Positions 8,771 to 9,190 are shown, counted from the stretch's first letter. The stretch: DNA of 16,684 nt from a virus (IMGVR_UViG_2526164618_000010); one strand, 5' to 3'. The notes: generated by a model not told the origin, from the letters alone. A program made the numbers and translations.

Positions 8771-8791
8771 TGTAACGCTGGCAGCGTTACC
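8771..8791. repeat. 21-bp palindrome TGTAACGCT-GGC-AGCGTTACC, copy 1 (inside O-like gene)
   Basis: Direct reading; 9-bp arms with one mismatch at the last position, 3-bp spacer. Confidence 0.6.
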
Positions 8792-8977
8792 TTTTCGTTT
8801 CAGTTCGCGTATTTTTGTTACTCGCTCGTTTGTAACCGCCCGTTTTTTAGAGCTTTTTCCGTTATGACGTTCAAAGTTAGGTAGAGAAAGCCCACCGTCA
8901 TTTTCGACCAGCCATCCAACCTGAATTAACGCATCAGCAAAACCAGACATAAAAGTGATGCGATCTATTGCACTTTT

Positions 8978-8998
8978 TGTAACGCCGCGAGCGTTACA
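8978..8998. repeat. 21-bp palindrome TGTAACGCC-GCG-AGCGTTACA, copy 2 (inside O-like gene)
   Basis: Direct reading; one mismatch between the arms. Confidence 0.6.
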
Positions 8999-9169
8999 AT
9001 CTGCATTACCGTCTATCATTTGTTGATCCGCCCATGCCCAGAAGCGAATAACCTTCCCTAATGCGGCATCTGGATCAATATTCAGAATCTCAGCAAGCCT
9101 GAATATTTCCGGCTTATCCGGCGTAATAACCTCGAGCTTTATCCAGTTTGAAGCCATTTGTTTTCACCT

Positions 9170-9190
9170 TGTAACGCTCGCAGCGTTACA
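9170..9190. repeat. 21-bp perfect palindrome TGTAACGCT-CGC-AGCGTTACA, copy 3 (immediately upstream of the O-like SD)
   Basis: Direct reading; lies between the YdaT-like stop (9235) and the O-like start (9157). Confidence 0.65.

Follow-up and report, generated by a model that had tools for sequence, protein, structure and literature searches.

Palindromes in and before a prophage initiator gene as probable initiator-binding sites with a candidate origin core

What are three copies of one 21-bp palindrome doing in and just before a replication initiator gene, two of them inside its coding sequence? The question is raised by IMGVR_UViG_2526164618_000010, a viral DNA of 16,684 bp (hereafter the window, meaning the whole stretch analysed). 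The original prediction, made on this DNA, suggested that the copies could be dispersed origin iterons, operators bound by the initiator or by some other dimeric regulator, or sites for a site-specific enzyme. A precedent for origin sites within a coding sequence is phage lambda, in which ori lies inside gene O and has four tandem, dyad-symmetric iterons at the boundary between the N-terminal and C-terminal domains of the O protein. In lambdoid phages the origin-specific N-terminal domain of O is inherited with its own origin, and the C-terminal domain is matched to the loader encoded downstream. Here, we argue from sequence comparisons that the replication initiator encoded by the prophage itself binds the three palindromes as a dimer and recognizes them through its N-terminal domain, predicted to be winged-helix-like, a reading to which we assign a probability of roughly 0.72.

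Three palindromes and the gene that carries them

The palindrome TGTAACGCT-N3-AGCGTTACA has exactly three matches in the whole window with up to three mismatches allowed, compared with a mean of 0.00 and a maximum of 0 in 200 dinucleotide-preserving shuffles. The genes around the palindromes are on the minus strand, with the initiator ATG at 9157, and signed positions below refer to this gene. The features that the argument needs are as follows.

9170-9190: upstream site, TGTAACGCTCGCAGCGTTACA, a perfect palindrome (TGTAACGCT-CGC-AGCGTTACA) that spans -33 to -13 relative to the initiator ATG
8978-8998: site A, TGTAACGCCGCGAGCGTTACA, one arm mismatch; gene +159, codons 54-60, frame 0, peptide CNARGVT
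8771-8791: site B, TGTAACGCTGGCAGCGTTACC, one mismatch; gene +366, codons 123-129, frame 0, peptide GNAASVT, at the boundary of the N-terminal domain and the linker
8748-8756, minus (coding) strand: isolated half-site AGCGTTACC, exactly 23 bp from the copy at 8771
8727-8744, minus strand: GA-only homopurine tract GGAAGAGGAAGAGGAAGA, encoding EEEEED, downstream of site B; a candidate unwinding or loading element
8735-9157, minus strand: initiator N-terminal domain (aa 1-141), predicted to have a winged-helix-like fold with a basic helix after it; this domain is proposed to bind the palindromes
8380-9157, minus strand: whole initiator gene, with a frameshift near 8560 that leaves open reading frames (ORFs) at 8519-9157 and 8380-8655

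The centres of the palindromes are 207 and 192 bp apart, and the upstream site is placed between the ydaT stop codon and the AGGTG Shine-Dalgarno sequence of the initiator gene, which it abuts. The original prediction had described three perfect or one-mismatch copies about 200 bp apart, two of them in frame and encoding NAASVT and NARGVT and the third directly 5' of the Shine-Dalgarno sequence; this description is borne out in all its parts. Complete tandem pairs of palindromes exactly 23 bp apart are present at site B in several relatives, and the half-site at 8748-8756 is probably the remnant of such a second palindrome. The site-to-site spacings, which range from 184 to 259 bp, follow no consistent helical phase.

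A further imperfect 21-bp palindrome, AAGCCGGAAATATTCAGGCTT, lies at 9095-9115 (gene +42) and was seen in 48 close relatives. It was set aside because only near-identical relatives have it and no copy turned up in the more distant ones, which leaves it without evidence of independent conservation.

Linkage to the N-terminal domain and selection on the DNA

The initiator is 262 aa long in its intact form, as in Escherichia coli FDAARGOS_944 (locus L001) and in the protein WP_038340159 from a relative, compared with 212 aa for the ORF of the window. It matches PHROG 2509, a family whose name, 'replication initiation protein', is an annotation, with an E value of 1.2e-89 over residues 1-262. No Pfam match was obtained for it even at E ≤ 10, and hence none to Phage_rep_O; nor does its N-terminal domain fall into any Pfam or NCBIfam family, DUF1376 included. 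The 'O-like' family PHROG 678 is matched by the C-terminal part only. The original prediction had called the gene an O-like initiator; the protein is not a lambda O homologue in the sense of Pfam. It is modular: the C-terminal 124 aa of the intact protein are 81% identical to the C-terminus of YdaU from the Rac prophage of E. coli K-12, whereas the N-terminal domains of the two proteins are unrelated (hhalign probability 0.2%), and the recombination junction is located at about aa 139, just past site B.

The distribution of the palindrome follows the N-terminal half. An exact scan of IMG/VR for TGTAACGC-N5-GCGTTACA returned at least 120 stretches, and 122 loci (121 fetched loci and the window) were examined, a set ascertained through the motif itself. 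Among the matches listed, 110 of the 122 loci contain a gene for an N-terminal domain homologue (first ~137 residues, 32-100% identity), with the palindromes in or just before this gene, and about a dozen single motif matches are without it; by our own rough estimate, the latter number is about the chance level for 16 specified bases in such a collection. A second set was ascertained through the protein only, with the peptide patterns MAGDWIK and PDKPE, and comprised 66 loci from GTDB (one genome per species), mostly of Verrucomicrobia, Planctomycetes, Akkermansia and gamma- and beta-proteobacteria, together with 80 viral contigs. In these loci GTAACGC-N5-GCGTTAC occurs at gene +147 and at +336 to +398, and with up to two mismatches the gene regions, 90 kb in all, hold 54 sites, whereas the 1.03 Mb of flanking DNA holds none, so that the motif is not a generic repeat. 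The original prediction would have been refuted by a motif equally dense throughout the genome; this was not seen, as shown by the empty flanks of these protein-ascertained loci. Two related viral contigs (L062 and L023) carry an extra near-perfect copy, TGTAACGCTGGCAGCGTTACT, about 4.9 kb downstream of the initiator start, and these are the only out-of-gene matches in ~1.9 Mb of flanks.

The three sites differ in how far they are conserved. Site B is the family-wide site, at +328 to +423, and relatives belonging to several phyla have site A, at +138 to +164. Not every relative has the upstream site, which in some distant ones is at -44 or at -56 to -59; in close relatives both of its arms are kept and the 3-nt spacer varies (GCG, GTG, TAC, CAC, CTG). 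Two Planctomycetes loci (L183 and L180) depart from the single 21-bp palindrome and have in its place, at gene +345 to +410, short half-sites that alternate in arrays, for example GCGGAG/CTCCGC in steps of 11-12 bp and GGGGACA/TGTCCCC.

Sites with such a distribution might belong to another regulator, namely YdaT (CII-like), DicA or DicC, the DUF977 winged-helix protein or a host factor, the more so as these DNA-binding proteins are encoded beside the sites in the window. However, among 34 loci with a canonical palindrome and an N-terminal domain of less than 60% identity, only that domain co-occurs with the palindrome, and tblastn found no homologue of YdaT, DicC, DicA, DUF977, the DnaC-like protein or the initiator C-terminal domain. 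The motif search of the window also found no palindrome-like site in the dicA-dicC intergenic region, and a host factor is unlikely because the hosts range from Enterobacteria to Planctomycetes. For YdaT there is a direct comparison, as two studied homologues bind TTGATT-N6-AATCAA (PMC9986795, PMC11879457). The YdaT/CII-like boxes resemble the sites described here in being palindromic and in the same early operon, where two candidates flank ydaT, but they differ in half-site sequence and spacing, stand separately from the palindromes and have no linkage to the initiator N-terminal domain. Recognition by a regulator other than the initiator is thus very unlikely in our judgement. Of the two YdaT-box-like inverted repeats, with two mismatches each, one is at 9647-9664 over the ydaT start codon, as in the published K-12 YdaT layout. 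The other, at 9221-9238 over the stop codon, is separated by 31 bp from the upstream palindrome. The number of YdaT boxes in the window is not above chance (three found, 1.1 expected).

Because two of the copies are coding, the conservation could also be that of a peptide, a recurring N-A-x-x-V-T motif in the protein with the DNA symmetry incidental; both internal copies of the window do share a frame and encode similar peptides. This explanation is already contradicted by the reading frames, since site B is read in frames 0, 1 and 2 among relatives and so encodes different peptides, and one copy of the window is non-coding. Synonymous positions are constrained as well: in 27 non-redundant protein-ascertained genes, the third positions of the site A codons (GGT AAC GCT ... 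AGC GTT ACA) have an entropy of 0.6-1.3 bits, compared with ~1.5-2.0 bits at other conserved fourfold-degenerate codons. Furthermore, the peptides of the two coding copies map to parts of the AF2 model that are of low confidence or disordered: site A codes for a loop of lower confidence with a helix on either side, and site B for a disordered segment (pLDDT < 50) that follows the basic helix; in this model, the two segments appear to be places able to tolerate a sequence imposed by the DNA. A purely peptide-level origin of the motif is scarcely credible, and these comparisons indicate that selection is acting on the DNA of the sites and not on the peptide.

Selection on nucleic acid might still concern the transcript, with the palindromes acting as RNA hairpins of the early mRNA in processing, stability or translational control. 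Each copy folds into a stem of 8-9 bp with a loop of 3-5 nt (z-scores of -4.5 to -5.5 versus shuffles), the upstream copy adjoins the Shine-Dalgarno sequence, and a terminator scan flags the stem at 8772-8790, although on the non-coding strand. Pairing would not explain, however, why the half-site sequence G-T-A-A-C-G-C is itself nearly invariant. The arms of 120 distinct sites contain 163 pairs that are not Watson-Crick, made up of 22 G-T pairs (read on the coding strand), 33 A-C pairs and 108 other combinations, and this lack of a wobble bias disfavours a hairpin. Some half-sites stand alone and some are arranged tail to tail, no Rfam family matches at the sites, and conservation across phyla with different hosts counts against a host RNA-processing signal; we consider a role as RNA structure to be highly improbable.

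Recognition by the initiator itself makes a further prediction, namely that sites and protein change together. Distant family members carry other 21-bp palindromes at the position of site B, the commonest being TGTCCGCAT-N3-ATGCGGACA; further variants begin with CTAACGC, GTGACGC, GTCACGC or TGTCCCGAT, and the outer TGT...ACA is usually retained. Sites A and B co-vary within genomes, positions 4 and 18 being concordant in eight of eight distinct variant pairs (Fisher 6e-10). On the protein side, the basic helix of one subfamily pairs almost exactly with the site: the motif T-AKR-V-A-x-H occurs with GTAACGC and CTAACGC sites and the motif [ED]-A[KQ]R-K with GTCCGCA sites. The counts overstate the number of independent events because each class may be one clade; even with this possible effect, the pattern is what a specificity module of initiator and site would predict.

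A candidate origin core beside site B

If the palindromes are initiator sites, where would the DNA open? A second DNA element adjoins site B. Its survey covered the window, L001 and 100 protein-ascertained genes, 102 genes in all that have a palindrome at site B, and in 75% of them the purine run in the 90 nt that follow site B is above the 99th percentile of its own locus. The run usually starts 11-12 nt past the last palindrome, and otherwise at, for example, 22-23, 34, 43-44 or 55-56 nt, and it is 14-44 nt long in relatives L122-L267. A 5-nt period, (AGAGA)n, is present in 60 of 88 genes and is translated as EKRRE repeats. The purine runs use AGA for arginine, a codon that accounts for 6% of arginine codons in the rest of the same genes; a test of arginine codons within purine runs is circular by construction, and the informative parts are the contrast with the rest of the gene and the 5-nt periodicity. 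The coding strand around site B is A-rich, with 40-47% GC and a plus-strand AT skew of about -0.5. The GA tract may be an origin-opening element.

We propose that the sites and the N-terminal domain are inherited together as a single module, which is overprinted on the 5' region of the initiator gene and would run from the upstream site through site A (in loop-coding DNA) and site B (at the domain boundary) to the decayed tandem half-site and the GA-only tract. With the lambda ori in gene O as the model, the origin core would likely be at ~8720-8870 and consist of site B, its decayed neighbour and the purine- and A-rich stretch, a proposal made because of the architecture: site B at the junction, a half-site 23 bp away, the GA tract and the A-rich flank. 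The bound initiator would open the DNA there, and its YdaU/DnaT-like C-terminal domain would bring in the DnaC-like loader and the host DnaB. The upstream site and site A would probably serve cooperative binding or looping, auto-repression, or both.

The auto-repression just mentioned could also be the entire function, the sites being operators only, at which the initiator or its dimer represses or roadblocks its own operon, and the true origin being elsewhere. The palindromic form of every site, which suits dimers, the dispersal over intervals of ~200 bp, the position of the best site directly upstream of the ribosome-binding site and the lack of a strongly AT-rich block near the sites all agree with such a role. 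Nevertheless, it is not the upstream site that is conserved universally but site B, which lies far inside the gene where the domains meet. Operators would also leave unexplained the conserved GA repeat at a fixed offset after site B. The tandem 23-bp pairs at site B and the presence of repeats at the same relative position in K-12 YdaU count against this reading too. In addition, an operator that overlaps a promoter is not supported, because the promoter scan found no sigma-70-like promoter near the sites. We give operators as the sole function a low but appreciable chance. Among the options of the original prediction, the initiator's own sites are the one favoured by N-terminal domain linkage, co-variation and the domain-boundary position; YdaT or another regulator is disfavoured, and a site-specific enzyme is without support.

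Several points weigh against initiator binding and an origin at these sites. The first concerns the nature of the evidence: we infer binding, dimer stoichiometry, origin firing, opening, loader recruitment and the role of the GA tract, and for binding, origin activity and the initiator function this draws on annotation, synteny and co-variation, with co-variation classes that may each be a single clade. The second is the layout, as sites ~200 bp apart form no tight iteron array and are as compatible with looping or an operator function as with an origin, and the region by site B is only moderately AT-rich at the GC content given above, unlike a classic AT-rich unwinding element. The third is the protein model, which has modest confidence (mean pLDDT 70); its winged-helix matches in a Foldseek search against the PDB are not significant, and a PDB profile sequence search returned nothing significant. 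The fourth is that 26 of 126 protein-ascertained relatives have no site B palindrome. These are mainly a Prosthecobacter-like group, in which L145, L149, L154-L156, L161 and L162 have no palindromes at the A and B positions. A half-conserved site, TGTAACGCT-N4-GCGTTGGA, is found in this subgroup at -55 to -58 upstream of the gene. Finally, both replication genes of the window are frameshifted, and the replication module is for this reason probably a defunct relic here.

Relation to known origins and gene context

The closest comparison is with lambda ori/O and its counterparts in P22, phi80 and 82. The likenesses are that the sites lie within the initiator gene at the N-/C-terminal domain boundary (site B, codons 123-129), that they are dyad-symmetric and taken to bind dimers, that the N-terminal domain and the sites are exchanged as a unit while the C-terminal domain matches the downstream loader, and that the gene follows cro/cII-type genes and precedes a P/DnaC-type loader. 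There are also clear differences. The N-terminal domain of the window protein has no detectable relation to Phage_rep_O of Pfam. The sites are 21 bp long, of another sequence and, in this lineage, ~200 bp apart and in one case upstream of the gene, whereas lambda has its four iterons in tandem. Beside the sites there is a homopurine repeat of G and A only and not a clear AT-rich block. The sites keep their sequence from phylum to phylum, whereas closely related lambdoid phages have different iterons. Judged by the features that sequence can address, the module would belong to the lambda ori/O class without being a member of the Phage_rep_O or DUF1376 families, and by analogy it is most likely a lambda-style origin/operator of an uncharacterised winged-helix-like initiator family. 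Three features set it apart from the lambda paradigm: the dispersed three-site layout, the homopurine repeat and an operator near-invariant across phyla.

YdaU (DUF1376) and YdaV of the K-12 Rac prophage offer a second comparison. YdaU occupies the same slot, after ydaS/ydaT-type genes and before ydaV, shares the C-terminal 124 aa described above and has internal repeats just upstream of the domain junction. It differs in its unrelated N-terminal domain and in that its repeats are direct 14-mers, not 21-bp palindromes. In NC_000913.3 (L270) these are four to five direct repeats of approximately AAGCAGATGTTCAA, spaced 12-33 bp apart at 2972-3063 in ydaU; they are a candidate iteron array of the Rac origin.

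A third parallel is provided by the Rep proteins of iteron plasmids (RepE, pi, RepA), which have winged-helix folds, bind direct-repeat origin sites as monomers and bind inverted repeats as dimers for auto-repression. Like these proteins and staphylococcal RepA_N (PDB 4pta), the initiator considered here would be a winged-helix initiator binding repeated origin sites, the fold in this case being a prediction, and the Rep dimers on inverted repeats recall the palindromic sites and their possible auto-repressive role. There is no sequence homology, however, and here every site is palindromic and the sites lie within coding DNA.

The neighbouring genes of the window are the following.

9945-10352, plus strand: DicA-like repressor
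9641-9868, minus strand: DicC/Cro-like regulator
9235-9657, minus strand: YdaT/CII-like regulator
7627-8373, minus strand: DnaC-like helicase loader of the ydaV type, in two ORFs in the window; the presumed partner of the initiator C-terminal domain

In this order the initiator gene takes the O position and is followed by the DnaC-like loader. Both genes are intact in E. coli FDAARGOS_944. The truncated form of the initiator is common in Shigella records, and the window is probably a decaying Shigella prophage because this form is the one annotated in Shigella flexneri. Elsewhere in the window, three Rfam matches are above the gathering score: a sok antitoxin RNA at 5709-5884 (minus strand), adjoining a hok-type gene, an isrK Hfq-binding RNA at 12984-13060 (plus strand) and a C4 antisense RNA at 13085-13172 (plus strand), an antirepressor immunity element of the P1/P7 type.

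The family is present in about one-eighth of complete E. coli genomes (at least 80% coverage), and its members include phage TL-2011b, from an enterohaemorrhagic E. coli (EHEC) O103:H25 outbreak strain, epsilon15-like Salmonella phages, Xanthomonas and Ralstonia phages, and prophages of Akkermansia, Planctomycetes and Verrucomicrobia. The searchable literature, which is incomplete, yielded no description of the palindrome, the GA repeat or an origin for the family, and no origin is annotated in the records of Escherichia phage Rac MN652886 and TL-2011b. A bolder proposal is that these loci represent a widespread, undescribed phage origin module of two DNA elements overprinted on the initiator gene, an operator, TGTAACGC-N5-GCGTTACA, and the (AGAGA)n repeat read as EKRRE, both near-frozen from Enterobacteria to Planctomycetes and Verrucomicrobia, with the GA repeat as a new origin-opening or helicase-entry element that replaces the AT-rich unwinding element. 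We advance this tentatively and consider it doubtful as it stands. The repeat might act, for example, as a mirror repeat prone to H-DNA or as a single-strand platform read by the basic helix of the initiator or by the DnaT-like domain.

If the initiator does recognize these palindromes, a large initiator family without a Pfam model would gain its cognate DNA site and a likely origin. The locus would also be an unusually clean natural case of a DNA signal constraining a protein, with fixed codons, one site that relatives read in any of the three frames and EKRRE repeats imposed by the 5-nt period of the DNA. The specificity classes (GTAACGC with T-AKR-V-A-x-H versus GTCCGCA with [ED]-A[KQ]R-K) could serve for the engineering of orthogonal origins, and the motif together with the GA tract would provide a compact marker for finding origins in the genomes of uncultivated phages.
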